Positions 5,423 to 45,316 of a DNA stretch of 64,000 nucleotides are shown here, in pieces. The notes beneath the pieces were generated by a model, which worked only from the letters and a program-made list of their open reading frames with translations, was not told where the DNA came from and did no database searches. Each line of letters begins with the position of its first letter. Within the stretch, counting starts at the first letter, position 1. The position numbers were made by a program, and so were the translations under genes. Source of the stretch: Amphiscolops sp. MND2022 (Eukaryota); assembly GCA_964187785.1 (NCBI GenBank), contig OZ076409.1, forward strand, positions 32,986,001-33,050,000, written 5' to 3'.

Positions 5423-5941
5423 AACTACAACTGGCGGTTTAACATTTGATACCTAGAGCGAAATTCAGAGCTTCATTTCCAATTATAGTTGATCAAGTGG
5501 CTGGAGCTCTGATGTAGTAGCTTCTTTTGCTGAGATGATTTTGGGAAAAATAATTTTTTCAAAGTCAAAAATGAGCTAATATCTGACCTCGCGTATTTCG
5601 CTATTTTTTAGTCGTTGCCTTTTCCCTTATTTTGTTTTGTTTTGGCAACAGCATTTGATTTGAATTTGCATTTCTTTGAAAACGTACAATGATACTGGTA
5701 TCCACAGAGTTTAACAACAAAACATTATGGAACTTAGCGTGTTCTTGATTTAAGTACGTTTGCTTTCAAATTGCGATAAGATGATCGAAAAATGTCAGTT
5801 TTTTATATTTTCAAAATTCGCATTTTCATAGTTTACTGGCTACACTCCAGCCTTGAAATTACGTCGCTGCTAGAACATTATGGGCGGAACGTCTCCCGTT
5901 GGTGAGCCGGCGTCTTGTGAATTGGGTTCGAACTCTTACAA

Positions 5942-8647
5942 TGTAACGTCAACCAGTTGGCACCAAAAATTTCATGAAAAGTCAAAAGGAGTGCGATTCA
6001 AAATGGCCGACCTGGCAGATCCCTGAAAACAAAAAAGACGCAAGAAGACCGCAAAATAATTTCCCCTGAACCCGTGAGAGCACAAAAAAGACAGACACAG
6101 AAACCAGAAAAGCTGAAGAGTGACTAGAAAACGTAGTGTTGTGCCGTCTAACCCCAAGAAATGTCTGAAAAGACTCAGAAGAAAGAAACAACCTTTCGCC
6201 CGGAAGACCTAGTGGACTTTGTGAGAAAGCTGGAATTACTGATTTTGATCATTTTTGTTTCGTTTTGAAGGTTATTTAGCAGACTTGTGATAGTATCGGA
6301 TCTACTAGATCCTAATTTTGTCATTTTAGATACTATTCGTCTAATAGAATGAGCTTTTGCTAGAAACCTGTTTTCGGACCTCGGGAGTATCACACGTCTT
6401 TTGTCAGTCTACGTGCCAGTGAGAGCCCACGCGACCTCCTTAGTATACTCGGAACCCCTCGCATATCCTGCTGAATCTCTTTGATTTGTGCTTAACCGAC
6501 CCTAAGATCTTGGGTCTCAAAGAAAACCGTCTACGAGACTAAATCGAAATTCGTCTCCTGGCTGCCACCAAAGTCACCTGAGTGCAAATTATTCGTTGTG
6601 AACAAGCATGCTTGGTGCCCTAAGTACCCTGTGGGTCCTAGAGCTCGTTTATAGGCACTTTTAGAGGTTCAGACTCTCAAAACAACAATTACAGTAGTGA
6701 CTACCTCAGTTGAAAAAGAACGCCTTTACTATCGTAAGGCAAGAAATCACTTCGAATTCAGTGTCCTTCCTCCTAATCACCTCCAAGGCCTATTGCCAGT
6801 CCTTGAAAACACTTACGTCCTTACTTGTGCTCTCCAGAAACAGGGCAGCACGAGTGACAAACAGACTTTTCACACAATCTAGCAACTGTAGCCAAGCAGG
6901 CTTCTCAAAAAATCAGTGTTCATTGTTCGATTCATGCCTAAAGTGTACCTGGGTTCTCGGTACCGAAGTTGTGGGAACCATATTGATGTGAAAACACCGG
7001 ACAAGTGATTGGCGTGGGGAGTATCTGTACTCTTCTGAGAGAAATCAACACCAAGCATGATAAAACAGCTGGAGCTTCGAAGCTCTGAGAACTGCTTGGC
7101 CAGCGTCCGTGCTTTTAAAACTCAAGTGATTGCTTTGGAACTTGTTTGAATGCAAAAGACTGTTTTCATGATCTATCATGCCTGAATTTGATTTTTATTG
7201 GATCTGCTCTATCATCGCTATCGACATAATCATCCTCTTGAGAAGCAGTTTAATTCCATCTCTTACATATACACTGGTGCCTATACAACCTAGACGATAC
7301 CTTTGTCTGAGCGTACACTGCTAACATAATAAACTGATTGGGTCCTCACGTTTGGTGATTTTCTTGAATTTTTGAGCTCTGTTTTCCCATTGGTGCTATT
7401 TATTGTGCAGTGTCTGTTGGCCATGAACTACGACACTTTCGCAAGACCACAGCTGTTACTTTTATTTATCGCTTTTCAAGTGCAATCGTGCATTTTGTAA
7501 AACCTAATCTATCAGGTGGGCTCCCTTTTATATTTATACAGATTCGGTAACAAAAAGTGCTAGTAATTTTGGTGCGAAATAAAAAGTTTGAAAACGTTTT
7601 CAATGCAATGCTAAGTGTCTAAAGTTGCTAATACTTCCAGTGCAAGAACCCATTGTAGGCGTGGAATCCGAGGAAGCCTGTTAGACTGGCAAAAACTCAT
7701 GTTTTTGGGCAGTAACATGTTTTTGGGCAGTAACAAGTTTTTGGGCAGCTACTTTTGTTCGAGTTTCTGAAATGGCATATTGCTGAAACAGTACCCTGGA
7801 TGATGACAACCAAGACGTCAACGTTCACTCTCGTTTGTCGAGGACGACAAACTACGGCCCGGGTTCGATGTAACTTCAGGCAGTCGATGTTACAAAATTT
7901 GGCTGAAAACTTCGAAATGTGGGATATCAAATAAGCACATTCAAGATGGCCGACCGGGCAGGTACGAAAAATGTAGAAGAACCAAAAAAGTGTAAAAACA
8001 GATCACCCCCAGTCCCCGACACCCGAAGGCACCCGGGAGACGCTGAAAAGAGAGCGAAACCTAGTGTGGTGCCATAGCATCCAGGGAAATGTCGGAAGAG
8101 ACCCTCCAGAATCAAGGTGCAACCTCTCAGTGGATTTTTGCAAGAACTGCGGAATCTTGTCGAAGATGCCCGAGGAACTCTTAGTAGTTATTTTCATTGT
8201 TATTAATGTTTTTAGCGAATTCGTGATGAAATTGGGTCTATCAGATCCCAATTTTGCTGATTTTAGATCTAATTCTGCAAATATAATGCACTTTTGCTGA
8301 ATCCTCTTTTTGGACCTCGGAGGTATGTAGAGGTCGCGGGAACACGTGAGGAACCTTAGGATTCGTTTTTACAGACTTGTGGGACGTGTTCGGACTTTGA
8401 GAGTGCCGGCGCGTCGCCTCGGAGCTGTAACGGAGGAGCCTCCCTTGACGTCAGATTAGTCCCCATGGGAGACCATTTTGGGAGAAAAACTAGTGCCTAG
8501 GGCTGTAGTAAGACAACAGTCTCCTGTTTAAGCACCCTGGGCACTGTCCCACTTCCTTGATGTGCGCTGCCAGCCGACGTTACACCTGTTTAAGCACCCT
8601 CTGCATTATCCCACTTCTATGATGTACGCTGCTAGCTGGACGTTACC
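5942..8647 (+). mobile_element. Non-coding LTR retrotransposon deletion derivative of the B/C Gypsy family (partial 5' LTR ~5942-6385, internal remnant, 3' LTR ~7869-8647)
   Basis: Starts TGTAACGTCAACCAGTT (reverse complement of the LTR end at 46030/51057) and ends GCTAGCTGGACGTTAC. It contains the leader motif AACCGACCCTAAGATCTTGGGTC (~6494) and the pre-LTR motif GAGGACGACAAACTACGGCCCGG (~7840) shared with element C. Flanks ACAA/CCAA are at best a degraded TSD. Confidence 0.7.
7698..7751 (+). repeat. 18-bp tandem repeat x3 (CATGTTTTTGGGCAGTAA)
   Basis: Read directly. Confidence 0.85.
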
Positions 8648-8701
8648 CCAATAAATACAGATTACCAAGTGGCTGTAAGTAGCCCAATAGAAAAATGCTT
8701 C

Positions 8702-10441
8702 TGTCATGAACATTATGACTAGGTAAATCACCATTTCGGTGGCCTTCGTCTTGTTCATTTCTCGGATTGTTCCTTGTATTTAAATTCCGCTGAACTTCAG
8801 GATTCGTTTCCGGTCTCTTAGCCGGAACGTCCTGTCTTTTTCTAGTCACACGTCCTGATCCCGCCAAACTGACATTTTGAATCTGGGGTAATACCTGATT
8901 ACTTATAGCGTCATTTATGGCTCTTTGGATCTGAATACTGACTGAAATCATCATCTCATCCATTTCTCTAGATATTCGAGAGTTCAGTTCACTTGACAAT
9001 TTATTCATCTCAGCCTGAGAACACATATCAGCTGAATCGGCATTTGTCCTGACATTAGAATTTATTTGATTGGAATATGAGCTTTCACCTTCATTTTCTA
9101 GATTGTTGCTCGCAACATATTCATGTCTTCTGATAGAAGTGCTATCTAAGCTTTCATTCCTTTCAGTCCCATTGAAATGGTTTCACCTAACATAATGTCA
9201 CGATTTTCAATGTCTGAGCGGATTTCTAAACCTCTTGATTTCCTTGCTCTCTTCTGGTTCCTGGTAGTAGGCATCAAGAAAAAACCGGATTAAATATTCA
9301 ATTATTTAGGACCGGAAAACTAACAGAGTAATTGTTTTTAAAAGCGTCTTCACTAGATCGAGTAAAAAGGAAATAGTGGCCCTCCTTGGCAAGATATCTC
9401 AATATATACTCCCAGGAGAGTGACACTCACATTTTTTTCATTCACTAGTTAAGAAATGAAATCACATGATACACGACTTCTAAGGAATTATCCCGATATC
9501 TACATGTTTCGGGAGTTTCAATCAACAACCTTCGAAAGGTATTTAATCAGACTAATTACATCGAACAATTCATCAGTGAAAGTATTATCGCGGAAGTGTC
9601 AACAAATACCACTAGTCACAATCTTCACAACCGAACGTGGTGAAGGCACGTGCCGACACACGCTTATTGCTAAGAGCATCAAGAAATAAAGAAATAAAAT
9701 ACACTGATACATGTAGAGGTTTAATACAAACCAATTTCTAATATTGGCATCTATATAGTACATTTTCATATTATGGCCGGAATTGTCCAAAACCATAAAG
9801 TGGAACAATACAACAAAGGGATTTGGGGAAATGGCCTTAATTGTCCATTACTCTTGATCAGGTTTGTTTGGTCATTAGTACAGCACACAAGCATCTATTT
9901 AGTGTAATCGCACAAACATATCAACACCGGTTAAATACAGGCTTATTAAGCGCCAAAACGTCATAATGCACAAATTAGCCGGGAACGGCCATTTGACCAA
10001 GGTATCAACAAAGGCAAGTTAAATTAGGTCATAAGGCCCTATTCGGCCAGAACTGAATAAAAGCACCAAGACAATAAATGAAGCGATCTGATTGGTTATT
10101 AACTGCACCGCGAGCTTTAACGCCGAGAAAGGACGTTTCCGCATTTGAACACCATTCCTTCTCGCAATTGAATTGTTTACTGCCTTTCATTTCAATTTGT
10201 GTCTCCATTTTACATCTTTACAAGTTTCATCAACAATCTGATTTGGATATTCCCAAATCGTAATTTTTAACAGACTAATAAGATAATTAGCAACGTATGA
10301 GATAAGATGCTGGTAGGTAAATTAAACGCAATTGTCAAATGTGAGTTTCAAAATTCAAAGGTTAACAGTCTAAAACATAGGCAATGTACCAGGCATAATT
10401 TCCTGACCTGTAGCTGATGTGGTTATCGTCGTGCCGTCACA
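8702..10441 (-). repeat. Element A 3' LTR (lacks the first 17 nt of the 5' LTR)
   Basis: Colinear with 23170-24914, roughly 90% identical by eye. Confidence 0.9.
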
Positions 10442-11160
10442 CTGCGGGTTTTATAAAAAGGAACGCGCCAGCATTTAATCCATTTTCGTAAGCTTCTCTT
10501 CTCATTCTGGTTATGTATTTGGGTTCTCCTCTGGGTTTTGATCTTGTCACATACCAGTCTACTTTCTCCCTTTTGGTTGCGTCTGCTGATCGCCCACAGA
10601 CCATACATCCTGAGTAAAGCACCTCGCTGACGTTTTCATAGGCCCTCGTATTTTGGAAGTGGTAAGATGCGTGAAAGTCTCCAATGACCGGCTGAACTAA
10701 TGGAGTGTCCAGACTGGGCCCTCTTTCATGCTCCGGTGGTGACATCGGTGACTCCGGCACGAGCAGGATGGTATTGCAGAGTTTTAATCGAGACTTTCCC
10801 GGTTTCTTTGGCGGAGCGTAGCACATCTCTCTGTCAAAGTATTTTTGTTCTAGTTTTGGTGTCAAATCTGCTTGCATTTGGGACGAATTCGGCTCTGCTT
10901 CCGATCCGCCTTCTTCGGGATCGTCCATCGTCATGATACGGCCGCCGATCAAAATGGGGCTAGAGGTAACATCCGTCTCAATGCGGGCTATTAACTGCTC
11001 TGTGTCCGTTGAGCAGTCGTATTCCCAATCTCTTGCAGATTCGTCTTCGCTGCTAGATATATAAATCACTGATCTGTCAGATTCGCCGGAGTCTGATTCT
11101 TCTAAGTCGAACAGTTTTCTAGCGAGATTAAATTTGCTCTTTATGAGTTTTTTAGCTATT
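10437..11160 (-). CDS. Element A accessory sense ORF of unknown function (acidic N-terminus, CxxC), running into the 3' LTR
   Basis: Open for 210+ aa (10437-11069, extendable to ~11160), with SSSEDESARDWEYD and GCMVCG. The stop falls in the first bases of the LTR. Confidence 0.6.
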
Positions 11161-12186
11161 TTTGAAGCCAGCAGAGGAAACTGGTCAGTAACAAGATTTG
11201 AGGTAGAATGAATTTATCAAACTAAAGAATTTAGCTTAGTCGGGCCTTACCCCGGCAATCCGTTTTTGGCGGTCGAGTCTTCGGTAAGACATCCCAATCC
11301 GACATAAACAATCCTGAATGGAATTCCTTAATTAGTCGGCAGTCTTTGATAATTTGATGTTTACCCCTCATCAATATCATCACTAGAAGAGGTGTGAATG
11401 ACGCTCGAGTTGCTAATATCAACTTCACCTATTTAAGTGGGTAATTAACGGGCCGCTTGAAGGTAATTAACGGCACGCGTCACCAAACCTTCTTAAAATG
11501 GCTTCAGCCAATCAGAATTGAGTTTTGATGAATCGAAAAATGAATATTAAAATGGCGTAAAATAATAATTCTAAATACTTCAAAATGGCAAAAATTTTAG
11601 CTAAGGATAACAGGGATAACGGAACAAAACGGTAAAGCGAAACAAGGCAAACGGCTATAGACGGCCACTAACTAAATAAGCTGTAAATGATGAAGGAATC
11701 CTCGTACATTTCGCTGGCAGACTCCATGTACAGTTTTAAACATGTAGATTATCATATAATATTAGTCTGGTCATCTTCTTCAGCCACGAACTCCAACTTT
11801 CAATTCTATTATAATTTATTCCTTTCCAATTCCATTTATTCTCCTTTTGCTTCATTTACTTGAATTCATCTGGTCAATACTCGTCCCTCTCCGTCTTCAA
11901 CTCTGTGGCTGACTCTTCCCTTTGGAGCACTCCGGATCTCCTCCTTCCAGCCGGACGAGGCCAGTTTCCTCATAACCAGACTTCTTCACCTGGACTATTT
12001 TTTTGGATTAGCCTTCTTCATCCAGAATGTCAAACTCAGGTTGGTTTGGTTTTTTATAATTTCTCTCAAACAAACTCAGTTTGATCAGGACTGAAATTTG
12101 TTCACAACTGCTTCCATCGTTGAACACGTTAACACACGTTTCTTTCAAATTTGAAAAGAGTTCCGGAAGATTTCTAACGCGGCAAA

Positions 12187-15100
12187 TGGAGAACTATCAA
12201 GGAAGCGTACCGCTAGGTTTCATTCCCTTCTGTTTAGAGAATCATGATACACCAACCTCATCCCAAATTATCGAGTCTGAAAAAATAGTGGCTGCTGACA
12301 ATAGGTCAGGGAAAACAGTTGCTGCGGGCAATACACCTGCACCACCACTTCTCCCAGATTTCTCTCCTTGTAGGATAGTGAGCAGGACGTCACTGCTTAT
12401 GCCGAGTCCGTTGTTGAGAAGATCGAGCAAGCCGAACAAGCAAGCCGAACAAGCAAGCCGAACAAGCAAGCCGACTCACCGCAGAGTTGCCATCGAGTGA
12501 TGTTCCTGATCGTAGCCTTCCGGATCCAATAATTGCAGACTTTAACCAGGGCTTTGAGCGGTCTAGTACCTATACCAGTCCCTGGATGTGGGAATACTGT
12601 AGCCAATTTATCCGGATTAGAATCTGTTCTGGACGTTGCCACTACTTCTAGTTCACTGCTACCAGAACTACGTTTAGTATCACACTCGGCACTACAAACC
12701 CAGGAACAAGCCCCAGGCCCAGCAGACGAGGACACCACCTAATCGGTCCAGGATGCTCCAGCCTTACCCAGCGGGCAACCAAAAGCGCGCTTCCCACTGA
12801 GCCAAAGTGGAATAGACAGTTCTGCTGAGAATACATCTCACTTTGACGTCTTTGAACTGTAGGGTCAAAAGCCAGTAGACATGGAATCAGGGACTGATTG
12901 GGGGATATGAGTCAGGCTTTTGTACCTGTCGACAGGGACTAGAGGAGACCAGAATCCCTGCCATCCCAGTAGAGGCGTATGGACTTCCTCAGCTGTCAGG
13001 ACGAAGCAGAGCTTTGCTCAAAAGACATTCCGAAGAAGCCGACGCATTCAGATTGCCAGTTGGACACCCCACTATAGCATTCACGGAGTCCCAGGTATAC
13101 AACCTTCTCAGAGGGGTTACAGACGAGACTTTGAGGATGTCGTGCTCGACAATGGAGCGGATGGTCCTGGACGCTGTTAGAGGAACCCCCACTATCGCTC
13201 CTTCGAAGACAGACCAATTTCGGACTAGAGGCCGGGCTCAGACTCCTGCACGAGGGCATGAAGAGGACTCAAGTATGAGTGAGACAGACAGTGATCCAAA
13301 TGCTCAAACTGGGGTCGACAGTTCTGATGGGATGCGTGAGTCTTCTTTTTTGGGCGAAAGCGACAGCGATATAGAGATGGCCTTGATTTCTGAGACCTTC
13401 AAACAGGCCCCAACGTTGCCCAAATTTGCTTCTTCCACAAGTGTTCCCCTAACCGACAACAAACTGAAGAAGCTGAAGTCAGTGGGATCAGCAGTCATCT
13501 GGTCTGGTGCCATATGTGCAAGAAAAATTTCTCCTTCGAAACAAAAGGAGGCTTCGAAATACTTCGCCATCATCGCTCGGAAAGACATCTCCGGTGTGAT
13601 CAGCGGTGGCGGTATGAGCACTTAAAAAGTACCGATCCAGTCAGCGGGAAGACTCAACACCGTGTCCGAGGACGGAACAGTAAAATATTGACGAAGATGG
13701 AATTGGCAAAAGAACTCCCCAAATTCATCCATGTGGAGTTAGTTGACGTTGGTGAGCGGTTCCCATTTCATGAAGATTTCATAAACGGAACAACTACTGC
13801 CGTGGTAACCCCAGAATCCCGTACACGAAGACAGTTTTGCTTGATTGGGGATTTCATCCACACGCACGGTGACCTATCAGTCTTGCGGAATTCGTGGGCT
13901 AGAGTGGGCTCTTACAGCAACCACCAAGCTGCTTTTTGCGATTTCGATTGGGGAGAAGAACGTCTGTGCGTAAGTATTGTCACCTAGGGTACCTCTTCGA
14001 GGATTAAACTACTTGAGATAACCCTAATTTGTCCCTTTTAGGCAATTTTCCAACATATCTTCAACTCTGCCTTGGGAGACGTCGCTGAACAGATAATGGC
14101 CCAACAGTGTTTCGGCATTGAGTTCGAAAATGACGGAGTCTACCACTACCTGTCTGCACTATTCTGGAAAGGCACAGAACTATGCCGCATTTACATCTAC
14201 AGAAGCTCTCTTCCCTCTTCAGATCTGGCTGGAGAGATGCGGTCCTTGTCCAGACTTCGTTCCGTGGCATCTACCCATTGGGAGATTGTAGCCTGTTCTG
14301 GATGTCCTGCTGACTTGATTCGAGTCATTGATTGCTCTGAGTTCTTCACTCGCGGAGTACAGAGGCACCTACGGTACCTGATGCACAAGTCCAGCTACAG
14401 TGTCTTCGGACATATAGATTTCTTCTCTGTGCTCCAGGCTCTGCTTGTGTCTATAGGCGGGTCCCTCAATGAGGAATGGGCATTGCGCAGTCCAGAACTC
14501 TCCAAGGTAAACAATTTCCCATATGTATTCTTATGATCTGTTGTATGATGCAAAAAAGGGGAAGAGGTAGGAATAAGGACAAGCCTCTTCATCGACTCTT
14601 GTATCTTTTCATGTTTAGGCCCTTGCTTCTTGCAAACTGGAACTTCTGACGCTCCCCACATTATGCCGAGAACTCATAGCTGAATGGAAATCAGTGGCTC
14701 GGTATTTGTCCGTCTATGCACCTAGACAAGAAGGACAGGGTTCACGCAATAAAGTTAGTTGTTTTCATACACACTCCGTCATTTGGACCAATTAGGCGGA
14801 TGTTTCATTCTAGGACACTACAGGGGAGGCGACTTTAGAATTCATTCCCTAATTTCGTTTTAGGTGCAAAGTTTCGAATGGTCCCTCATCTGCGATGAGT
14901 TTTTTGTTGTCAAACTGGAACTCTTCTACAAACTCATTGGAGATTGTTAGTATCTATAGATAATGAGTTAAGCCTTGTCAGTAGGCCTTTTATGGCCAAC
15001 GTTGATTTGTGTTCACAGATGTGTCCAGTTTCGAAGTAAATCTCCAGTATAGACGGGATGTCTCTTTCTTCCTCTGCGGGGAAACAATCCGGTTTCTCTA

Positions 15101-16160
15101 CAAACTGTTTTCTCGCTGTTACACTCCCGACACTGCCCCGTTGGAAAATGCTTGGTTCTTGCTGCTAAAGTTCCACACGAGTGAAGCAACCTTCATGGCT
15201 GGTGATGAACTCCTGTTGCGACTCAAACTTACTAACAGAGTGACTACTTCCAATAAAGCAAGGGCTGAGGGGCTCCACTTTGACAAGAAGTCTGAACAGA
15301 CTGCTATTCAGAAGTCCGCAACAACCGTGAAGACTGGATTTATTGATGATGCACTTCACTATTTTCAATATTTGATCAACTCGGTACTACGCCAAACTGG
15401 TCTTAGCTCGGATATCATCAAGGGTCTCGCTGCTTTTGATCCCTTCATTATGTTCAAAAGGCCGACAGAAGTGGCCCTTCGCCATTTCGATCTTCTATAT
15501 AGTACCTTTTGTCTCCGTTCTTGGGTCACCAAAGCTAATGAGTCAGCCTGTCGAGACCAGTATACTGAGTTGCTTGACCATTTGAGGATTTGTTGAGACC
15601 CAGACTACGACCTGCCCAATTCGTCCTCAGATCTGATTGATTTCCTGCTTGGTCTTGAATTCCACCAATCTCGAGATCATCTGTTATACCTCTTCAATTT
15701 ATGCTGCCTGTGTGCTACTACACCCAGTCCAGACTACCCAGAAGTCATCGTAGGGAAGATTTCGACCGTTGGGCAACACAGTAGATTCACTGACGTCATC
15801 CTCCCTTGCCAGAGTTACATGGCTAGTTTGTCCGGTTCTTCAACACTTTGCAGCGACGACTCAAATTTGGCAAGATTTTCCTTGCTCAGCGCGTCCTTTG
15901 GTCAGTCAGCCTTCTCTTCCACCTGTGATCCATGGACTTATGTTGAAAAATTCGGAAGATCCAAAATTTACAAACCCTTATCGTCCTCCTATCGTGCCGT
16001 GCTAGCTGGCCCAGAGGAGGTTCTTGCCCGAAGTGTGGTAGATGATTCCGTTGCCGATGAGAGTGCATTGAAACCCCCTAGTAGTAACAAACACAGGAGA
16101 CGTGAGAAGAGTGGATCCCGTTCCTCTACTTCCTCTGTACCAGGAACTTCTAATTCTTAA
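12187..16160 (+). pseudogene. Antisense, intron-containing gene inside element A: BED-like Zn finger plus hAT-transposase-like body
   Basis: WCHMCKKNF...EILRHHRSERH finger at ~13505-13590. GT-AG introns at 13970-14041, 14507-14618, 14754-14863 and 14946-15018 join the ORFs in frame through to the stop at 16160, with one in-frame TGA at 15594-15596. The 5' part is frameshifted and the start is uncertain. Confidence 0.75.
12424..12473 (+). repeat. 13-bp tandem repeat (GAACAAGCAAGCC) about x4
   Basis: Read directly. Confidence 0.8.
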
Positions 16161-16223: not shown

Positions 16224-19200
16224 CTATCTCCGTTTTGTTTCTTTGATCCCGTATTTATTAGGCCTGAGATTATATTTCCCTCCTCTAGGGCTCAGACTTT
16301 CATTTCTAGCATCATCTTCCGATATTCGGGCACGATAATATCATCCCCCCTGTTTGGAGAATTTCGTGCATCATTTTTATTCGTTGAAAATCTTTCTGAA
16401 AAAAATTCATCGTTTTTCAGTCCATCTGCCGTATTCGGCAAAAAATTTTTTTGATTTTTTGGGTAAACGGCCGGATTCGGCCAATCAGATTCTTCATTTC
16501 TAGACGCTTCACTAGCTTCATTTCTTTTAGTGACGTCATCATTTAATCTTTCATTCCGGCTATGCGCCGCACGGTCAGCGTAATTTGTTTCGTCTCTCGT
16601 GATTATGTAATCCGTTTCATTCTCGTGTGCGTCACTTGAATTCGTTTCTGCCGCATTCGGCCGTTCGCCATTCGGCAAGCTAGTCGGAATAGGTTCGTTA
16701 GCTTGCTGTTCACCAAAGTCTGTTTCCCACGTTATGGTATATAAGTCGTCTTGCGGAATGACAATTTCTTCATCAGGATGTAATCGCTGTTCTCGGAAAT
16801 TGTCCTCAAGCGGTTGATTAGGAACAATTTTTTAACGGCGAATCCAATGCAATGTTTGAGTCTTGTTGGTATTGATCCTTCGTACAATGTAAATTTCATT
16901 AGGTAAGATTTTTTGGACTATAAATGGTCCAACCCATCGATAATCTCGAAATGGAATTTTTGATCCTTGATGATCCGCTTTCGGCTGTAATACGAAACAG
17001 TATTAATTCTCCTTTAATGGAGCGGCTTTTACTTTGCGGTCATAGTATTCTTTGTACTTCATATACGACTGCATGATGTTTTGTTTCGTTTTGTCAATCA
17101 AGATTTTGTCCTGTTTTTGATTTCCTCAGCAAATTCGGTTGTTGGGTTGTTGGGTCGGCATGCATTCTCCACATGCCATTTTGAGGTTTGTTTTCAATGA
17201 GGCATGAGTCCGCTCCAATTTCCCAATTGGTTTCAGAAGTTTTGTCGTTGCGCATTTGAGTGTAATGCATTTGCGTAATTTCCGCAATATTTGTAGAAGT
17301 GAATGCAGTTCATTCGTCGTTGGTAGGTAAGAATGCTTGGTCATGATATCAATGGGTGCTTTTTCCCAGAAAGTTCTGTTTCTGGGGTTTGACGCCTTGT
17401 GGGGAAATTTTTCGTCCGAGAAATTCAATTTCGGTGGAACCAAAGTGACATTTGTGCATTGTCAACTTAAGGCCAGCTTCCTGAATGCGTTTGAAGGTTG
17501 CTCTCAGTTTGGCAATGAAGTGATCAGCATCATTGGCTGCGATGCCGATATCGGGCACACTGATCCGCTTTGATAATTTTATCAAGGAATTCCCTCATTA
17601 AACTCGAAAATGCGGACAGTGCCCGACTATTAGGTCTTGCGCCAAACGTCTGTAGGCAAATGTGAGACTGGCAAAATTGAAGGCCATCATTTCAATCGAT
17701 CGTTAGTTGGCCATCTGCAGGCAATGATATGCCTGTGAGCAATCTAATTTGCAAAAGAGTTTCTTGCCTGCCATATGTTGGGCAGCATCGACTAGAGTAC
17801 TAACAGGGTGATTATTGTTTATATAATCGTCCGAGATTAGGTTGTTGATTTTTCTCAAGTCAACCAGGAGTCGGAGTTTCCCGTTTGGTTTGTTTTGGGC
17901 AAATATTGGGCTGGCATATTTTGAAAACAGTAGTGTGGTGATGATGCCATATTTGTGTAGCATGGCTAGTTCGACAAGAATGTCCTCTTCAAATTTATTG
18001 GTGCTGGGAGGCTCCGGCTATAGGCTGGCGAATCGTCCTTAGGGGTCAGTTTCACCTTGAATTCCTCGTTCATGCCTATGTCGAATCTGTGTCTGGCGAA
18101 TATGTCGTGAAATTCCACTAAGAATTCCTCAATTTTTCCTTTTTCATCAGCCGATAGAGTAGAATCTTTCCAATCAAAGTTTTCCAGGAACTTTGCCCTA
18201 GATTCCTCATCTTTGGTGGGGCCGAGGGTTTCCAGGTCTTGTAGGGCCTGTAGTTCTCGTAGTATCCGTTTATGGATAGGTGTATGTTCGACTGGGTTTC
18301 CTGGGTTTTCTGGAGTTGGGAACCAAAAATTTTCAAAGTTTTGCGGGTTTTTTGTTAGTCATGTTAGACTACTGACGTAATGAGCTGTTTGTTCTTGGTC
18401 ATTTTGCAGAAAGTGCCAAGTTGATGCCGGATCCACCGGTTTGACGTCTTTCATCTGTTCAGGTGTCATTACCGAGGAATTGGCAATATGTCCCATTTTG
18501 AGTTTATAAGGGTGGTCTGTGAAATTGTTCACAGGTATCGATATACTGACATCATTCAGAGTGACCAAAGCTGAGCAAAAGGTGATGTCACCTTCTTCGT
18601 GTAGAAGGTCACTAGGTTGTAATATTCCAGTAACAGCATTCTTGGGATAAAGTTGGGAGTTGGTCCTAATTAAGATTCTGTCGTTTGGCGGAGTAGTGAC
18701 TTCTATTGGGTTATTTATTGGTTCTAGCACGTTGGAATATCGATGATCAGCTGTTTTGAGCTGCATCGAGAAGTATGGGAAGTTCAAAATTCTTTGTCTC
18801 ATGTCCAGAACTGTATGGTTTCGCTGAAGGAACATTAATCCAATGATTGGTCCCGTTAGGTTCTCCATCATGATGAAGATTTCGTGGAACTCGATATCAC
18901 CAACCTCAAATTTGAGCTCTATGGTACTCTTGGGAGTTTCCAATTGCCCATTTGCGACCATTATTTGAAAGTTCGGAGGCGGACCTTCACGGATAACAGA
19001 CTGTGGTGATAAAATTCGGATTTTCCGTAGGTCCATTCCAGGGATTGCACTGGATAATGCTCCAGTGTCGATTAGGCCGTCTATGGTCAATTCCCCAAAG
19101 TCCATCGGGAAATATAGCATTTGCTTCTTGCATTTGAGGTTGATTATGGTCGAAAGCGGTATACAATCTGGTTCACCCTCCCTGATTATAAGGACAGTTT

Positions 19201-22040
19201 GGAATTGTTTCTCGTCCTACAATGATTGTGGAATTACATCATTGGTAGTTCCAGGGTTCTCGGTTCCCAGAGGGTTTGGGAACACTAGATGGTTGGTACC
19301 GTCTTTCATATGCCAATTTTTGATCAGCGCTCTTGTTTTCTTGTTATGGGTTATTGGAGGGTTTTCGTGGACTGTTGTCTTATAGTGCTCGATATCGTCT
19401 AGGGCATATTGGAATTGTGATAGGTCCTGGTTATAGAGCTCGGTGTCCCAATAGGGATCTCTGCCATAGTCTGGGTCAATATATGTTGGAATGTAGTCGT
19501 CAATTAAGGGAATGGGCCTGAACCGGGTAATAAAGGTGGTTGTGTAATCAGGATCCCAAACAGAAATTGGTTTTTGGAACAAATGGGTATTGTTATAAGT
19601 ATTAATGATAGCATTTTCCATCTGTTGCTGCTAGACAACAGAGGGATAACCCATCAATTGTTGTTGATATTCGTGGAATGTTTTTGTTGAAGGATCCGAC
19701 ATGATTTTTTGTCGGACTGATACTAGGTGGTTGCATTGGAGTCGTGGCGAAGCTAGTTTTTTGACTCGACATTGGAAGATGAGGATTGAAAATTGGACGA
19801 TGTTGGCTTATTCTGAGGTTTTTGAGCATTGGAATTCGGTTTATTATCGTTTGAATCCTCAGATCTGGTGCGCCTGGGTTTAAGGTGTGCTCCTGCGCTA
19901 TGCCAACATCTTTCTTCCGGATGGTTCTTCTTGCCACAAGTCCCACACTCAGGACCCATAAAACTCGAAAATGCGGACAGTGCCCGACTATAAGGTCTTG
20001 TGCCAAACGTCTGTAGGCAAATGTGAGACTGGCAAAATTGAAGGCCAACTATTCAATCGATCGTTGGTTGGCCATCTGCAGGCAATGATATGCCTGTGAG
20101 CAATCTAATTTGCAAAAGAGTTTCTTGCCTGCCATATGTTGGGCAGCATCGACTAGAGTACTAACAGGGTGATTATTGTTTATATAATCATCCGAGATTA
20201 GGTTGTTGATTTTTCTCAAGTCAACCAGGAGTCGGAGTTTCCCGTTTGGTTTCTTTTGGGCAAATATTGGGCTGGCATATTTTGAAAACGGTAGTGTGGT
20301 GATGATGCCATATTTGTGTAGCATGGCTAGTTCGACAAGAATGTCCTCTTGAAATTTATTGATGCTGGGAGGCTCTGGCAATAGGCTGGCGAATAGGGGT
20401 CAGTTTCACCTTGAATTCCTCGTTCATGCCTATGTCGAATCTGTGTCTGGCGAATATGTCGTGAAATTCCACTAAGAAATCCTCAATTTTTCCTTTTCAT
20501 CAGCCGATAGAGTAGAATCTTTCCAATCAAAGTTTTCCAGGAACTTTGCCCTAGATTCCTCATCTTTGGTGGGGCCGAGAGTTTCCAGGTCTTGTAGGGC
20601 CTGTAGTTCTCGTAGTATCCGTTTATGGATAGGTGTATGTTTTACTGGGTTTCCTGGGTTTTCTGGAGTTGGGAACCAAAAATTTTCAAAGTTTTGCGGG
20701 TTTTTTGTTAGTCATGTTAGACTACTGACGTAATGAGCTGTTTGTTCTTGGTCATTTTGCAGAAAGTGCCAAGTTGATGCCGGATCCACCGGTTTGACGT
20801 CTTTCATCTGTTCAGGTGTCATTACCGAGGAATTGGCAATATGTCCCATTTTGAGTTTATAAGGGTGGTCTGTGAAATTGTTCACAGGTATCGATATACT
20901 GACATCATTCAGAGTGACCAAAGCTGAGCAAAAGGTGATGTCACCTTCTTCGTGTAGAAGGTCACTAGGTTGTAATATTCCAGTAACAGCATTCTTGGGA
21001 TAAAGTTGGGAGTTGGTCCTAATTAAGATTCTGTCGTTTGGCGGAGTAGTGACTTCTATTGGGTTATTTATTGGTTCTAGCACGTTGGAATATCGATGAT
21101 CAGCTGTTTTGAGCTGCATCGAGAAGTATGGGAAGTTCAAAATTCTTTTTCTCATGTCCAGAACTGTATGGTTTCGCTGAAGGAACATTAATCCAATGAT
21201 TGGTCCCGTTAGGTTCTCCATCATGATGAAGATTTCGTGGAACTCGATATCACCAACCTCAAATTTGAGCTCTATGGTACTCTTGGGAATTTCCAATTGC
21301 CCATTTGCGACCATTATTTGAAAGTTCGGAGGCGGACCTTCACGGATAACAGACTGTGGGGATAAAAGTCGGATTTTCCGTAGGTCCATTCCAGGGATTG
21401 CACTGGATAATGCTCCAGTGTCGATTAGGCCGTCTATGGTCAATTCCCCAAAGTCCATCGGGAAATATAGCATTTGCTTCTTGCATTTGAGGTTGATTCT
21501 GGTCGAAAGCGGTATACAATCTGGATCACCCTCCCTGATTATAAGGACAGTTTGGAATTGTTCTCGTCCTACAATGATTGTGGAATTACATCATTGGTAG
21601 TTCCAGGGTTCTCGGTTCCCAGAGGGTTTGGGAACACTAGATGGTTGGTACCGTCTTTCATATGCCAATTTTTGATCTGCGCTCTTGTTTTCTTGTTATG
21701 GGTTATTGGAGGGTTTTCGTGGACTGTTGTATTATAGTGCTCGATATCGTCTAGGACATATTGGAATTGTGATAGGTCCTGGCTATAGAGCTCGGTGTCC
21801 CAATAGGGATCTCTGCCATAGTCTGGGTCAATATATGTTGGAATGTAGTCGTCAATTAAGGGAATGGGCCTGAACCGGGTAATAAAGGTGGTTGTGTAAT
21901 CAGGATCCCAAACAGGAATTGGTTTTTGGAACAAATGGGTATTGTTATAAGTATTAATGATAGCATTTTCCATCTGTTGCTGCTAGACAACAGAGGGATA
22001 ACCCATCAATTGTTGTTGATATTCGTGGAATGTTTTTGTT
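16224..22040 (-). pseudogene. pol: Element A pol (PR, RT, IN C-terminus), inactivated, with a 2.3-kb internal duplication
   Basis: Protease LIDTGA in ORFs 18359-19120 and 20712-21473. RT ASPIFAQ.KPNGKLRLLVDLRKIN and KLDCSQAYH. The YxDD motif is deleted at ~17555 (DQCA..DIGIAA), and RNase H plus the IN core are deleted at ~17345. IN C-terminal WVGPF and terminal GGKYNLRPN are present. Confidence 0.9.
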
Positions 22041-22042
22041 GG

Positions 22043-23755
22043 CTAGTTTTGTGACACGACATTGGAAGATGAGGATTGAAAATTGGACGATGTTTGCTTA
22101 TTCTGAGGTTTTTGTGCATTGGAATTCGGTTTATTATCGTTTGAATCCTCAGATCTGGTGCGCCTGGGTTTAAGGTGTGCTCCTGCGCTATGCCAACATC
22201 TTTCTTCCGGATGGTTCTTCTTGCCACAAGTCCCACACTCAGGATAGGTTTTCTTCTGAGTCGATTTGCCTTGTTGGGCATCTTTCTCTTTTTTCTTTTT
22301 CAACTTTTCGCAGTCCTTGACCATATGACCCTTTTCCTTGCAGTAATTGCAAGTTATGTTTGACATTTGCCCAGTGGAAAGAGGAGTTTTGGGCATAGAG
22401 GATGAGGAAGTCATTGTTTCCATGGGTAGGTCATCTGACTCCTCGAGGGCATTAAGCTCTAGTTCTCTCTCCAACTGAGCAACTATTTCGTCGTTTGAGC
22501 CGTTTTCTAATCTGGCCATATTGACTGATCATTTGAGTTTAGGAGGCTGTTTTGCGTACAGGAGACTGTCAATCATTTTCTGTACATGGTCTCCAAACGC
22601 CTTTTCTACGCCTTGATTCAATTCTTCAAGGAAGTCTGGTAACTTCATTGTGTTTGGGTTAAAGACCAAACGGTGCCACTTATGTTTGGCGGTCGCCTGC
22701 TACTCAGGCTTGACGTATTTACGTCGAAAAATGATTAATACGTCCTCGAGAGTTCGTCTATTTGCTGAGCTGATGTTTCTGAACGTCTGAAGAGAATTTT
22801 TCCTCAGTAGGGAGTGAAAATGGTTTATTTTCATCTGTTCCGTCATTTCTGGCTCCATCTTGATCATGGTATGAAAACCATCTTCGAACAACTCAAAGTT
22901 CTCAATTTCGCTGTCAAAGGTCATAGTATTAGAATTGACCGGGTGTATGGTGAGTTGTTGGGCTGTTGGTCGATTCTGCATATTTGTCAAGACCTCTGCC
23001 GATGTGCTAATTGGGTCGGGATCGAGAGCCGTGGCAATTCTCTCTTGTGCTGGGATCGTCGTGTAAAGGTTGTTGTCCTTATAGGACTGATCGAGATGAT
23101 TTCGAGATGGTATACGTCCCGTGAGAAACCCAGGAACTGGATTTGGAGGTTCGTTTTCTCCTGCCATCATGTCATGAACATTATGACTAGATAAATCACC
23201 ATTTTGGTGGCCTTCGTCTTGTTCATTTCGCTGATTGTTCCTTGTATTAAAATTCCGCTGCACTTCGGGATTCGTTTCCGGTCTCTCAGCCGGAACGTCC
23301 CATCCTTTGCTAGTCACACGTCTTGATCCGGCCAAAATGACATTTTAAATCTGGGGTAAAACCTGATTACTTATAGCGTCATTTATGGCTCTTGGGATCT
23401 GAACACTGAAAGAATTCATCATCTCATCCATTTCTCTAGATATTCTAGAGTTCAGTTCACTCGACAATTTATTGATCTCAACCTGAGAACTCATATCAGC
23501 TGAATTTTGGCCGCAATCGGCAATTGTCCTGACATTAGAATTTCTATGATTAGAATATGAAGTTTCACCTTCATTTTCTAGATTGTTGCTCGCAACACTT
23601 TCATGTCTTCTGATAGAAGTGCTATCTAAGCTTTCATCCCTTTCAGTTCCATTGAAATGGTTTTCACCTAACATAATGTCAAGATTTTCAATGTCTGAGA
23701 GGATTTCTTAACCTCTTGATTTCCTTGCTTTCTTCTGCTTCCTGGTAGTAGGCAT
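22043..23755 (-). pseudogene. gag: Element A gag, disrupted, initiating inside the 5' LTR
   Basis: ATG at 23755 (MPTTRKQKKARKSRG), capsid-like FELFED.FHTMIKM...KINHFHSLLR, and two zinc knuckles CNYCKEKGHMVKDC and CGTCGKKNHPEERC. Confidence 0.85.
23158..23169 (-). promoter_or_regulatory. Putative degenerate primer-binding site of element A (tRNA-Leu-like)
   Basis: TGATGGCAGGAG immediately follows the LTR end (...CATGACA) and resembles TGGTGTCAGGAG/TGGTGGCAG, the complements of tRNA-Leu 3' ends. Confidence 0.4.
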
Positions 23756-24931
23756 GAAGACAAAACCGGATTCATTTATTTGAGACCGGAAAACTAACTG
23801 AGTTACTGTTTTTAAAAGCATCTTTACTAGATCGAGTAAAAAGGAAATAGTGGTCCTCCTAGGCAAGATATCTCAATATATACTCCCAGGAGAGTGACAC
23901 TCACATTTTTTTTGTTCACTAGTTAAGAATTGAAATCACATGATACATGACTTCTAAGGAAATATCCTGATATCTACATATTTCGGCAGTTTCAATCAAC
24001 AACCTTCGAAAGGTATCTTATCAGACTAATAACATCAAACAAATCATCAGTGAAAGTATTATCGCCGAAGTGTCAACAAATACCACTAGTCACATTCTTC
24101 ACAACGGAATGTGGTGAAGGCACGTGCTGACACACGCTTACTGCTAAGAGCATCAAGAAATAAAATACACTGATACATTTGGAGGTTTAATACAACCCAT
24201 TTTCTAATATTAGCATCTAAATAGTACATTTTCATATTATGGCCGGTTTGTCCAAAACCATAAGGTGGAACAATACATCAAAGGGGTATGGGGAAATGAC
24301 CTTAATTGTCCATTACTCTTGATCTGGTTTATTTGGTTATTAGTACAGCACACAAGCATCTATTTAGTGTAAAAGCACAAACATATCAACTCCGGTTAAA
24401 TACAGGCTTAACTAGCGCCAAAACGTCATAATACACAAATTAGCCGGAACCGGCCATTTGACCAAGGAATCAACAAAGGCAAGTTAAATTAAGTCAAAAG
24501 GCCTTGTTCGGCCAGAATTGAAAAAAAGCACCAATACAATAAATGAAGCGATCTGATTGGTTAATAACTGCACCGCGAGCTTTAACGCCGAGAAAGGACG
24601 TTTCCGCATTTGAACTCGTTTCCTTCTCGCAATTGAATTGTTTACTGCCTACTATTGTATCATTTCAATTTGCGTCTCGATTTTACATCTTTACAAATTT
24701 CATCAACAATCTGATTTGGATAATCCCAAATCGTAATTTTTAACAGACTAATAACATAATTAGCAACGTTCGAGATATTATGCTGGTAGGTAAAATAAAC
24801 GCAATTGTCAAATGTGAGTTTCAAAATTCAAAGGCTTACAGTCTAAATTGTAGGTAATTTACCTGGCATATTTTCCTGTCCTGTAGCTGATGTGGTTATC
24901 GTCGTGCCGTCACAGGCGGCAGCCTGTGACA
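23170..24931 (-). repeat. Element A 5' LTR
   Basis: On the minus strand it begins TGTCACAGGCTGCCGCCTGTGACGG and ends GTTCATGACA; it abuts the TSD GCTTC. Confidence 0.9.
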
Positions 24932-25604
24932 GCTTCTTGTTTTTTTTTCGCGAAATGCAATTAGTGGGTTAATATTCTTTGGTTGATGCAGAGAATTTTC
25001 CGTTTTACGCATAAAATTGCTGTTTTTCCAAGTTATAAAATTGCTTGAAATGTATCACTTCCATATTTTACAGTATAATAATTGGTTAATACCGAGAATA
25101 ATGAATAATACCTATAATAATGAGAAAATAGTGTCTTTGATCTGCTTCTGCCAACAAAATGCTACGCGGAGGTGAAAAGTGATTTTTTGTTTTTTTTTCT
25201 GGCATTTTTTACGATTTCGCTTGATTCGTGGCCCTTCTGTTGTCAAAGTGCAAAAAAATGACATCTGGTAAAAACTTGTTCCAGATGAAAAACTTTGTGA
25301 TTGAACTTTTATAGGACCTTGTCTGGTCGAAATTGAACAGGTCGAAACTCCTAAATTGTTCTGTCGGGTATAAGCAGTTTCGAGAATTTTTCAAAAGGTC
25401 TCACAGGGATCATGCTCTTTCATGCTCGAAATTTTTCAGCTGGGTTGCTACTTGTTTAATTTAGTACAAAATTTATGTACTTCTCAGACGGATAGCATCA
25501 ATGAAAGTGATGAAAATGCGTTTGGAGAAGGACAAACGAATGATTGGTACACATCAGCCTTGGATGAGAAAAACCTGACATTTTATTGTGCATAGAAGGC
25601 ATAC

Positions 25605-28600
25605 ATTTATTTTTGTACTTTTTGTTAAAACTTTTCTATTTAAAAAAAACTTTTTCAGTTTTTTGAAAACAATGGATGCTGATCCAATGGTTTTTCATAT
25701 TCAAATTAAATTGTAACGTCCAAATAGCAGCGTACATCTTGGAAGTGGGACAATGCCTAGATTGCTTGTACAGGAGACCAGTGTCTTACAACAACTTAGA
25801 CATTAGTTTTTATTGCCAAAAATAGTCTCCTGAGGGGACTTTTCATACGTCTAAAGAGACTCCTCTGTTAGAGCTCCGAGGCGACGCGCCGGCACTCTCA
25901 AAGTCCGGACACGTCCCACAAGCCGGTAAAAACGAACATCAGGGTTTCTGCGACCTCCTACAGACTCCGGAGGTCCGAAAACAGATATGTAGCAAAGGCA
26001 CATTCTATTAGATGAACAGTATCTAAAATAATGAAAAAAAGGATCTAATAGATCCGGTACGATCATCAACCTGTTAAATAACATACAAAATAACAAAATT
26101 AATCGAAATCAGTACTTTCAGCATTCTCATGAAGTTTCCAGGGTTTTTAGAGCAAACCTTCGAAGGGTTACTTCGTTCTGCTGGGTTTTTTGGACATCTT
26201 CCTGGGTTAGACGGCACAACACTGTGTCTGTCCGTCCATTTTCAGCTTTTTCCGGGTTCAGTTTCTTTGTCTTCTGTGCTTTCTAGGGTCCCGGACAGTT
26301 CTTTGCGTTCTTCTTGCGCCTCTTTTTGATTTCAGGGACCTGCCAGCTCGGCCATTTTGAATCGCACTCGTTTTGACCTTTCATCGAATTCTGTTATCAA
26401 CTGGTTGCCGGTACATCCTCTCGGGGCCGTAGATTGTCGTCCTCGGCAAACGAGAGAGGATGCAAAACACATACCCAGTTGGTTTTAGCAGCGTCATTAC
26501 AGCTTATAGCTTTCTTTGATTCGTACAAAAAAAATCAAAATAAATTATTAATCAGAATTGTTCAAAATTTTCTTGTTTTGATGGTTCTTTCGAGCTCATG
26601 TATTGAATTTTTTTTGTTGATTTTTTCAAATTTGGTTTGAATAAATTTTGACTAAAACTTTTCTACTTAAACAAAACTTTTTCATTTTTTTGAAAACAAT
26701 GGATGCTGATCCAATGGTTTTTCATATTCAAATTAAATTGTAACGTCCAAATAGCAGCGTAGATCTTGGAAGTGGGACAATGCCTAGATTGCTTATACAG
26801 GAGACCAGTGTCTTACAACAACTTAGACATTAGTTTTTATTGCCAAAAATAGTCTCCTGGGGGGCTTTTCATACGTCTAAAGAGACTCCTCTGTTAGAGC
26901 TCCGAGGCGACTCGCCGGCACTCTCAAAGTCCGGACACGTCCCACAAGCCGGTAAAAACGAACATCAGGATTCCTGCGACCTCCTACAGACTCCGGAGGT
27001 CCGAAAACAGATATGTAGCAAAGGCACATTCTATTAGATGAACAGTATCTAAAATAATGAAAAAAGGATCTAATAGATCCGGTACGATCATCAACCTGTT
27101 AAATAACATACAAAATAACAAAATTAATCGAAATCAGTACTTTCAGCATTCTCATGAAGTTTCCAGGGTTTTTAGAGCAAACCTTCGAAGGGTTACTTCG
27201 TTCTGCTAGGTTTTTTGGACATCTTCCTGGGTTAGACGGCACAACACTGTGTCTGTCCGTCCATTTTCAGCTTTTTCCGTGTTCAGTTTCTTTGTCTTCT
27301 GTGCTTTCTAGGGTCCCGGACAGTTCTTTGCGTTCTTCTTGCGCCTCTTTTTGATTTCAGGGACCTGCCAGCTCGGCCATTTTGAATCGCACTCGTTTTG
27401 ACCTTTCATCGAATTCTGTTATCAACTGGTTGCCGGTACATCCTCTCCGGGCCGTAGATTGTCGTCCTCGGCAAACGAGAGAGGATGCAAAACACATACC
27501 CAGTTGGTTTTAGCAGCGTCATTACAGCTTATAGCTTTCTTTGATTCGTACAAAAAAAATCAAAATAAATTATTAATCAGAATTGTTCAAAATTTTCTTG
27601 TTTTGATGGTTCTTTCGAGCTCATGTATTGAATTTTTTTTGTTGATTTTTTCAAATTTGGTTTGAATAAATTTTGACTAAAACTTTTCTACTTAAAAAAA
27701 ACTTTTCCATTTTTTTGAAAACAATGGATTCTGATCCAATGGTTTTTCATATTCAAATTAAATTGTAACGTCCAAATAGCAGCGTAGATCTTGGAAGTGG
27801 GACAATGCCTAGATTGCTTGTACAGGAGACCAGTGTCTTACAACAATTTAGACATTAGTTTTTATTGCCAAAAATAGTCTCCTGGGGGGACTTTTCATAC
27901 GTCTAAAGAGACTCCTCTGTTAGAGCTCCGAGGCGACTCGCCGGCACTCTCAAAGTCCGGACACGTCCCACAAGCCGGTAAAAACGAACATCAGGATTCC
28001 TGCGACCTCCTACAGACTCCGGAGGTCCGAAAACAGATATGTAGCAAAGGCACATTCTATTAGATGAACAGTATCTAAAATAATGAAAAAAGGATCTAAT
28101 AGATCCGGTACGATCATCAACCTGTTAAATAACATACAAAATAACAAAATTAATCGAAATCAGTACTTTCAGCATTCTCATGAAGTTTTCAGGGTTTTTA
28201 GAGCAAACCCTCGAAGGGTTACTTCGTTCTGCTGGGTTTTTTGGACATCTTCCTGGGTTAGACGGCACAACACTGTTTCCTTCCGTCAATTTTCAGCTTT
28301 TTCCGGGTTCAATTTCTTTGTCTTCTGTGCTTTCTAGGGTCCGGGACAGTTCTTTGCGTTCTCCATGCGCCTATTTTTGATTTCAGGGACCTGCCAGCTC
28401 GGCCATTTTGAATCGCACTCGTTTTGACCTTTCATCGAATTTTGTTATCAACTGGTTGCCGGTACATCCTCTCCGGGCCGTAGATTGTCTTCCTCGGCAA
28501 ACGAGAGAGGATGCAAAACACATACCCAGTTGGTTTTAGCAGCGTCATTACAGTTTATAGCTTTCTTTGATTCGTACAAAAAAAATCAAAATAAATTATT

Positions 28601-28715
28601 AATCAGAATTGTTCAAAATTCTCTTGTTTTGATGGTTCTTTCGAGCACATGTATTGAATTTTTTTTTTGATTTTTTCAAATTTGGTTTGAATAAAATTTG
28701 ATTAAAACTTTTCAG
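25605..28715. repeat. Tandem array of 3 x ~1026-bp units, each a B/C-family 3' LTR plus PPT-side stub plus AT-rich flank
   Basis: TGTAACGTCCAAATAGC recurs at 25712, 26739 and 27764. The LTR ends ...CCGGTACA (26415), followed by TCCTCTC(G/C)GGGCCGTAG homologous to 54351-54380. Confidence 0.9.
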
Positions 28716-45282: not shown

Positions 45283-45300
45283 ATCCCTCTGTGGTTGCCA
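45283..45300 (-). promoter_or_regulatory. Primer-binding site, tRNA-Arg-like (element B)
   Basis: TGGCAACCACAGAGGGAT resembles the complement of the metazoan tRNA-Arg 3' end (...TCCCTTCGTGGTCG-CCA). Confidence 0.65.
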
Positions 45301-45316
45301 TAAAAACTGCTCTTGA

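Follow-up and report, generated by a model that had tools for sequence, protein, structure and literature searches.

An antisense gene of five exons lies between pol and the 3′ long terminal repeat (LTR) of a Ty3/gypsy-type retrotransposon in the genome of Amphiscolops sp. MND2022, and it marks a whole clade of such elements comprising many families. We describe it from a 64,000-nucleotide stretch of contig OZ076409.1 (assembly GCA_964187785.1, positions 32,986,001 to 33,050,000; hereafter the window, with positions numbered from its first letter), where the gene occupies 12187–16160 on the plus strand and the host element runs on the minus strand. Across copies, the antisense reading frame is under purifying selection similar in strength to that on pol. 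The gene is very probably expressed as a spliced mRNA, and we are fairly confident that it descends from a hAT transposase. The explanation that best accommodates these observations as a whole, which we hold only tentatively, is that the element has retained a disarmed hAT transposase to its own benefit, as an accessory protein that binds DNA.

The gene model joins its five exons, all on the plus strand, across four GT–AG introns. Exon 1 (12187–13969) opens at an ATG that agrees with the starts in sister copies. The N-terminus that it encodes is long and of low complexity, with one block conserved near its middle; a basic stretch, a finger of the form C-x2-C-x16-H-x5-H (13508–13588), and a helical region follow in that order. 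Exon 2 (14042–14506) encodes an RNase H-like fold, predicted from the model of a homolog, L131, that matches Hermes residues 149–265. Exon 3 (14619–14753) spans 45 codons and exon 4 (14864–14945) 82 nt, and exon 5 (15019–16160) encodes an all-helical region with a basic tail, aligning weakly with Hermes 367–609. Introns 1 (13970–14041), 2 (14507–14618), and 3 (14754–14863) are in phase 0 and intron 4 (14946–15018) is in phase 1. These coordinates, phases, and joins are those proposed for the gene in an earlier reading of the same DNA (the original prediction), and all were reproduced from the sequence. From the exon sizes, the full protein would measure ~1,250–1,400 aa.

Comparison among copies supports the introns. 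Counting, among 18 aligned copies, only those with intron-length sequence, both splice dinucleotides are retained in 15 of 17 copies for intron 1, 13 of 16 for intron 2, 15 of 18 for intron 3, and 15 of 17 for intron 4, above the retention of arbitrary GT/AG dinucleotides in the same comparison (0.60 in exons and 0.45 in introns). Intron identity falls below exon identity (48–61% vs. 71–83% in L051, for example), donors or acceptors recur at matching positions in five of six distant-family loci that were read through, and three predicted proteins (P0127, P0075, and P0167) span the exon 4–5 or exon 3–4 joins. In L131, introns 2 and 4 are missing precisely at the predicted joins. This loss probably occurred by recombination with complementary DNA (cDNA) of the antisense mRNA, which would imply that a spliced transcript exists. 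Antisense introns are not removed from element RNA during retrotransposition, and those of this gene would persist because the element's sense genomic RNA does not treat them as introns. Two observations on intron variation stand apart: five matching copies of the small L131 family cross the intron 2 join, and the family L159–L162 has an AT-rich intron 4 of ~450 nt vs. ~70 nt in the near clade.

The window copy of the gene is a pseudogene, and the element copy as a whole is dead. Upstream of ~13500, exon 1 carries stops and frame changes; exon 2 falls 21 nt short of its length in sister copies; and an in-frame TGA interrupts exon 5 at 15594–15596. The original prediction had spliced the gene into one frame without noticing that this copy is dead. 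It had also remarked on the 63-nt gap between the gene stop and the converging pol stop, which is real in the window but peculiar to this copy: ~155 nt have been lost here, and intact sister copies have ~150–220 nt.

The same arrangement recurs throughout the 1.07-Gb genome, and a gene that had been treated as belonging to one element family proves to span many. Used as a DNA query, exon 5 returned 41 matches, 40 of 611 candidates having been scored; leaving aside the window's own match, they are 67–91% identical. Protein queries taken from distant homologs returned 5,565 to 9,156 first-look candidates, which are not copy numbers. Each of the 13 large contigs holds gene-bearing copies. In 47 of 50 loci (window included), the integrase tail converges on the antisense gene, the exceptions being a tandem copy that is rearranged and two loci where integrase has no match within 1.5 kb; it does so in nine of nine further loci as well. 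Of 20 near-clade copies, 18 have LTR-type repeats that bridge both flanks, and 5-bp target-site duplications (TSDs) are clear in several of them. Distant-family copies, with exon 5 only ~32–34% identical, show the convergent layout in 10 of 10 cases and an LTR pair at 97–100% identity in 8 of 10. Position and orientation are thus fixed across copies, a point that the original prediction had proposed to check. A host gene struck by an element insertion is ruled out, the gene lying within LTR pairs in many copies.

Searching from the element side gave the same result. With an integrase-tail query that contained ~200 nt of the gene and was thereby biased toward carriers, 23 of 40 matches run into the antisense gene at the DNA level; 10 of the other 17 were retrieved, and all 10 carry exon 5 at 58–64% protein identity. 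Every integrase-anchored copy open to assessment (33 of 33) accordingly carries the gene; an empty site was never encountered, and the loci examined include no free form bounded by terminal inverted repeats (TIRs). The protein family is probably present in other species as well, because two database homologs have best matches in this genome of only 29–31% and 38–40%, and a metagenome contig (L163; 1.2 kb, too short for context, and the only contig from the metagenome scan) is 61% identical to one of them. Copies L164–L173 combine an integrase tail 89–93% identical to the query in DNA with the more distant exon 5 just mentioned, a mismatch that suggests exchange of the accessory module between subfamilies.

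Purifying selection on the antisense frame is comparable to that on pol. Pairwise ratios of nonsynonymous to synonymous substitution rates (dN/dS), computed in the antisense frame at unsaturated dS from pairs that share a single reference and are not independent, are mostly 0.03–0.2. They are 0.03–0.20 in the finger region, 0.06–0.32 in exon 2 (except for one near-identical pair at 0.81), 0.04–0.18 in exon 5 within the near clade and 0.24–0.31 to distant families, and 0.12–0.36 in the low-complexity N-terminus, where two near-identical pairs lie near or above 1. The corresponding values are 0.07–0.15 for integrase and 0.05–0.30 for reverse transcriptase (RT). Together with splice conservation, these ratios rule out chance antisense open reading frames (ORFs).

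The gene has been inherited with pol and has diverged faster. Of 30 loci chosen for trees, 29 were used, the other having been set aside because of its low coverage. The exon 5 and integrase trees agree on a deep 17/12 split with support of 100/100, and the two sets of distances correlate at 0.78, a value reached in none of 2,000 permutations; most other nodes of the integrase tree are unresolved. The deep branch carries 1.25 changes per site in exon 5 and 0.24 in integrase, a roughly fivefold difference in rate. Among distant families, the accessory protein is 32–54% identical vs. 82–85% for RT, a disparity that fits a family-specific factor.

The assignment to hAT draws on predicted structure and language-model neighbors, with no sequence-profile match. 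The natural exon 2–3 frame of L131 was modeled with a predicted local distance difference test score (pLDDT) of 69 as a helix, three strands, a helix, strand 4, and a helix. In a Foldseek search against 350,542 chains, ranks 1–5 are all Hermes (E 0.0017–0.0071; probability 0.87–0.97). A VIA structural alignment places model residues 1–110 on Hermes 149–264 (Z 6.5; root-mean-square deviation, rmsd, 2.9; 103 residues), and only Hermes aligns from model residue 1 over ~100 residues with an rmsd near 3. For the exon 5 model (pLDDT 68), a wide VIA search places residues 1–311 on Hermes 367–609 (Z 5.0; rmsd 5.2; 160 residues), at rank 18 but as the longest alignment among the matches listed. The two models therefore fall in order on one protein, as these alignments place them. 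Language-model neighbors in the Atlas, both searches coming from one tool, are FAM200/GTF2IRD2 and Dimer_Tnp_hAT clusters for exon 5 (0.91) and DUF4371, FAM200-ZBED5 RNase-like, and DUF659 clusters for exons 2–3 (0.81–0.86). The likeness to a hAT transposase claimed in the original prediction thus has structural support. As for the BED-like finger that it proposed, the C2H2 finger is intact in 22 of 30 copies, including 10 of 10 distant ones; Pfam zf-BED gives no match to it, and hhalign against the finger of genomic hATs reaches only E 0.088.

The predicted catalytic center appears to be disarmed. Active hATs are described as requiring D180, D248, R318, W319, and E572 (PMC6027215). Registers were assigned by eye, guided by the secondary structure. 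On that basis, strand 4 ends (model positions 82–90) with no acidic residue among its common residues—all 70 rows have T, S, L, or R at position 86 and G at position 87—so the second catalytic aspartate (Hermes D248) is gone. At position 27, strand 1 keeps an acidic residue, E in 64 and D in 3 of the 70 rows, which possibly corresponds to the first aspartate (D180). No RW motif corresponding to R318-W319 was found, the near-invariant W153 being preceded by an acidic residue rather than R. Across exon-5 positions 204–258, where E572 was sought, no column is ≥70% acidic, in a stretch with pLDDT below 50. Neither TIRs nor an 8-bp TSD flank the gene in the four copies tested, where the only matches are scattered, 10–14 nt long, and at unrelated places. 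On the best reading of the models, the protein is a noncatalytic transposase derivative rather than a member of the active hAT transposons. None of the refuting conditions set with the original prediction that could be checked went against it: the altered catalytic motifs, the missing transposon ends, and the view of the gene as captured cargo rather than a recent nested insertion all agree with the comparison across copies, the last also with the fixed position of the gene and with a gene tree that tracks the integrase tree.

The history we propose would start with a single ancient uptake of a hAT DNA transposon by an ancestor of the Ty3/gypsy clade, in antisense orientation and in the interval that separates pol from the 3′ LTR. 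Loss of the transposon ends and of one or more catalytic residues would have followed, while the gene stayed in place as a fixed accessory gene, transcribed antisense into a spliced mRNA of its own; its protein would keep the zinc finger and the transposase scaffold. That protein would work in the nucleus as a noncutting DNA-binding factor that recognizes its own element family and either promotes element expression or shields the element from silencing. A gene that has no ends of its own, moves only in element RNA, and is selected as strongly as pol should benefit the element and therefore probably raises the element's own success. The finger, the disarmed scaffold, the basic stretches, and the long low-complexity N-terminus suggest a putative nuclear DNA-binding adaptor, and the fast divergence between families, along with similar integrase tails paired with dissimilar exon 5, would suit family-specific recognition or conflict with the host. 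A scan for over-represented 7- and 8-mers weighs against a target of the VANC type: in the LTR and spacer of eight copies, the top ones exceed shuffle maxima by at most one count. A self-promoting role, by activation or by anti-silencing, is thus a putative one that we rate at somewhat below an even chance; we nevertheless favor it over roles in integration or in self-restraint.

A role at integration, with the same hAT origin, is rather unlikely. The protein would tether or escort the intasome to particular chromatin, or aid nuclear import, and its retained zinc finger, basic stretches, and transposase scaffold would serve such a task; transport of the preintegration complex has been proposed, by analogy, for the antisense ORFs of plant elements (PMC7264820). 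The TSDs, however, are unrelated 5-mers and the copies are spread over all the large contigs, so there is no obvious sequence targeting. Two observations sit awkwardly with a tight partner of integrase: on the deep branch the protein diverges about five times faster than integrase, and L164–L173 pair integrase tails 89–93% identical to the query with diverged exon 5.

Self-restraint is less probable again. On this account, the hAT-derived protein or the convergent antisense transcript would limit element activity or confine the element to certain cells; the gene converges with pol and is wholly antisense to the genomic RNA, so it would yield complementary RNA, and antisense control has been discussed for plant and fly elements (PMC7264820), which offers an analogy. 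Control by RNA alone, however, leaves the pol-like dN/dS unexplained, and copies that had deleted such a brake should spread, yet every judged integrase-anchored copy carries the gene.

We consider it improbable, to a slightly greater degree, that the accessory gene is genuine but not hAT-derived, with an RNase H-like fold from another family and Hermes matches that reflect a common fold. Several results nonetheless pull in that direction and weigh against hAT ancestry. Every sequence-profile test was blank: Pfam found no hAT family in the exons or alignments, a PDB sequence search gave one chance match in one run and none in the other, and hidden Markov model and hhalign comparisons with the genome's own hAT ORFs, drawn from 43 loci, gave nothing significant, so no donor hAT was identified. 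No Foldseek match to the exon 2–3 model reaches E 0.001, the exon 5 model has no Foldseek match, and the Atlas scores for exons 2–3 are below 0.9. VIA Z scores of 5–7 lie in the common-fold range, where non-hAT folds score equally high, and Hermes either ties with sugar kinases and actin-like folds or ranks below them. Longer spliced homologs (925–2640 aa) were sought and none was found, which is weak evidence. Against a non-hAT origin stand the two separately folded pieces that choose Hermes and do so colinearly, the alignment from model residue 1 that Hermes alone provides, and the hAT families returned by both Atlas searches. A C2H2 finger also precedes the fold, as in hAT transposases (PMC6027215). 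The genome holds several long hAT transposase ORFs with recognizable catalytic motifs (L141, L142, L143, L112, L114, and L145), none detectably similar in sequence to the accessory gene.

That the LTR element harbors a hAT transposon which nested there recently or can still catalyze transposition is very improbable and largely refuted: the conserved strand 1 acidic residue could be a first aspartate, but strand 4 offers no second, and recent nesting is ruled out by a gene tree that follows the integrase tree, by the absence of any empty site among the copies judged, and by the lack of TIRs or an 8-bp TSD in the four copies tested.

Sequences on either side of the antisense gene suggest dedicated expression signals. 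Three short noncoding blocks upstream of the ATG (TCAGGTTGG, TGATCAGG, and TTCCGGAAG; 12036–12169, plus strand), identified by cross-family comparison, are kept across families whose spacers are otherwise unalignable, and the first of them occurs on the same strand only there in seven of seven copies scanned. TGTACA repeats lie after the gene stop. These features suggest a dedicated promoter or 5′ untranslated region (UTR), and a 3′ end signal. The first two blocks (12037–12089) resemble a splice donor and acceptor, CAG/GTTGG ... TGATCAG/G, ~40–50 nt apart, and possibly form a short 5′ UTR intron. The third block is a palindrome, which we take to be an ETS-like site. CCAAT and AAAATGG motifs in the spacer are not conserved in distant families.

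A second accessory ORF lies head-to-head with the antisense gene, on the sense strand of the element (10437–11213, minus strand; L037:2793–3512). In sister copies, it encodes ~240–300 aa, acidic then basic, and lies ~0.9–1.9 kb from the antisense gene. Its dN/dS is mostly 0.14–0.5, it was detected in 8 of 10 distant-family copies, and Pfam gave no match to it. The two genes may share a bidirectional promoter.

The host element in the window is heavily decayed. Self-comparison of the window delimits a 5′ LTR (23170–24931) and a 3′ LTR (8702–10441), both on the minus strand and 90.5% identical over 1761 nt, the 3′ copy lacking the first 17 nt of the 5′ LTR; inspection shows the unstranded TSD GCTTC at 8697–8701 (left) and 24932–24936 (right). 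The original prediction of a plus-strand gene inside a minus-strand element with two LTRs and this TSD was recovered in full. Also on the minus strand are the integrase C-terminal part of pol (16224–17209), which converges on the antisense gene; a decayed protease–RT region (17373–21852) that holds a 2.36-kb tandem duplication; and gag with a CCHC knuckle (22091–23767), whose reading frame opens inside the 5′ LTR. The RNase H and integrase N-terminal region has been deleted. No second match to the accessory gene occurs elsewhere in the 64-kb window.

Relatives establish the class of the element. In L132 and L131, Pfam identifies protease, RVT_1, RT_RNaseH, Integrase_H2C2, and rve in pol, and gag has a CCHC knuckle; the order protease, RT, RNase H, integrase in an intact relative makes the element Ty3/gypsy-type. 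The two LTRs with TG..CA ends, a 5-bp TSD where 4–6 bp is expected, and gag followed by the same pol order are those of this superfamily. TSDs of 5 bp also flank sister copies such as L039, L041, L043, and L049 and the distant L127, L135, and L139; their sequences among copies are unrelated (ATATG, TTTAC, CAGAT, CTGCG, and CCGTC).

Several further features of the element and window were recorded. In near and distant families alike, the gag frame starts ~200 codons into the LTR (window 23170–23767), and the 3′ LTR (window 8703–9286) also carries a gag-start ORF because that frame begins within the LTR. The polypurine tract before the 3′ LTR is atypical, CACACCCGCAG or CCCGGGGGGAG (window 10442–10460; L037, L131), and the primer site in sister copies is TGGTGACAGGAG. 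A weak dUTPase-like match lies between protease and RT (L132:3–3860, minus strand, residues 354–438; E 0.0014, below the curated cutoff). Outside the element, three tandem 1.03-kb repeats (25626–28713) are related to repeats at 45.3–46.0 kb and 50.5–51.1 kb, and a 314-nt inverted pair lies at 43544 and 48872 (extent 43544–48872).

Several plant Ty3/gypsy elements are known to carry antisense ORFs in the interval from pol to the 3′ LTR, among them gene23 of maize Grande, that of rice RIRE2, and the TRP28 ORFs of Retand (PMC7264820, PMC11963269). Their origin is described as mostly unknown, with a nested transposable-element (TE) origin unsupported for lack of similarity, and a 2020 review called for a search for antisense spliced transcripts (PMC7264820). 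TRP28 is a Pfam domain of unknown role, and the text of the Retand survey never uses the word "intron" (PMC11963269). The gene described here shares with these ORFs its position, orientation, near-universal presence, gag-pol-like conservation, and suspected nuclear DNA-binding role; as in the aORF-3R definition, an antisense ORF conserved like gag-pol lies between pol and the 3′ LTR in most copies. Unlike them, it has four introns, encodes ~1,250–1,400 aa, and maps colinearly on a hAT transposase. It is therefore probably best regarded as an antisense accessory ORF of known type, but spliced and probably hAT-derived. Searches of open-access text yielded no spliced hAT-derived antisense gene in an LTR element, and passages of an animal genome paper do not mention one (PMC9911081).

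The comparison with transposases is similarly mixed. In the models, the protein shares with Hermes and other hAT transposases a C2H2 finger, an RNase H-like core, and a helical insertion and C-terminal region in the same order, the match to the last two being weak (Z 5.0). Unlike them, it has lost the second catalytic aspartate, has no detected TIRs or 8-bp TSD, carries a long added low-complexity N-terminus, is not detectably similar to them in sequence, and moves only as part of an LTR element. Domesticated hAT proteins include the ZBED, FAM200, GTF2IRD2, and ZMYM1-like families, named from the Atlas neighbors; there, too, the transposase scaffold outlives the transposon ends, but those are host genes at fixed loci, whereas this accessory gene is kept by a class I element in very many copies.

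Functional analogies lie elsewhere. The VANC anti-silencing proteins of VANDAL transposons depend on a short motif present at high copy in the element (PMC6719617), and Plant Mobile Domain (PMD) proteins are borne by retrotransposons (bioRxiv 10.1101/2024.09.27.615353). Like both, the protein is a TE-encoded accessory that is divergent between families and proposed to act on its own family, by functional analogy only: its fold is unrelated, and no VANC-type motif stood out in the LTR and spacer of the eight copies scanned.

To the question of where the antisense accessory ORFs of LTR retrotransposons come from and what they do, this clade brings a case whose origin is traceable and whose intron structure is conserved, along with many families, both young and old, for comparison. 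TE-to-TE domestication, and possible counter-silencing by a retrotransposon, become directly testable. A bolder proposal, which we regard as speculative, is that a class I clade domesticated a class II transposase and that the disarmed hAT, as a putative family-specific, DNA-binding factor that counters silencing or activates in trans and is exchanged as a module between subfamilies, helped the clade reach thousands of copies. If the gene does encode a domesticated hAT factor, retrotransposons would have in it a counterpart to the accessory genes of retroviruses, and one with an origin that can be traced.

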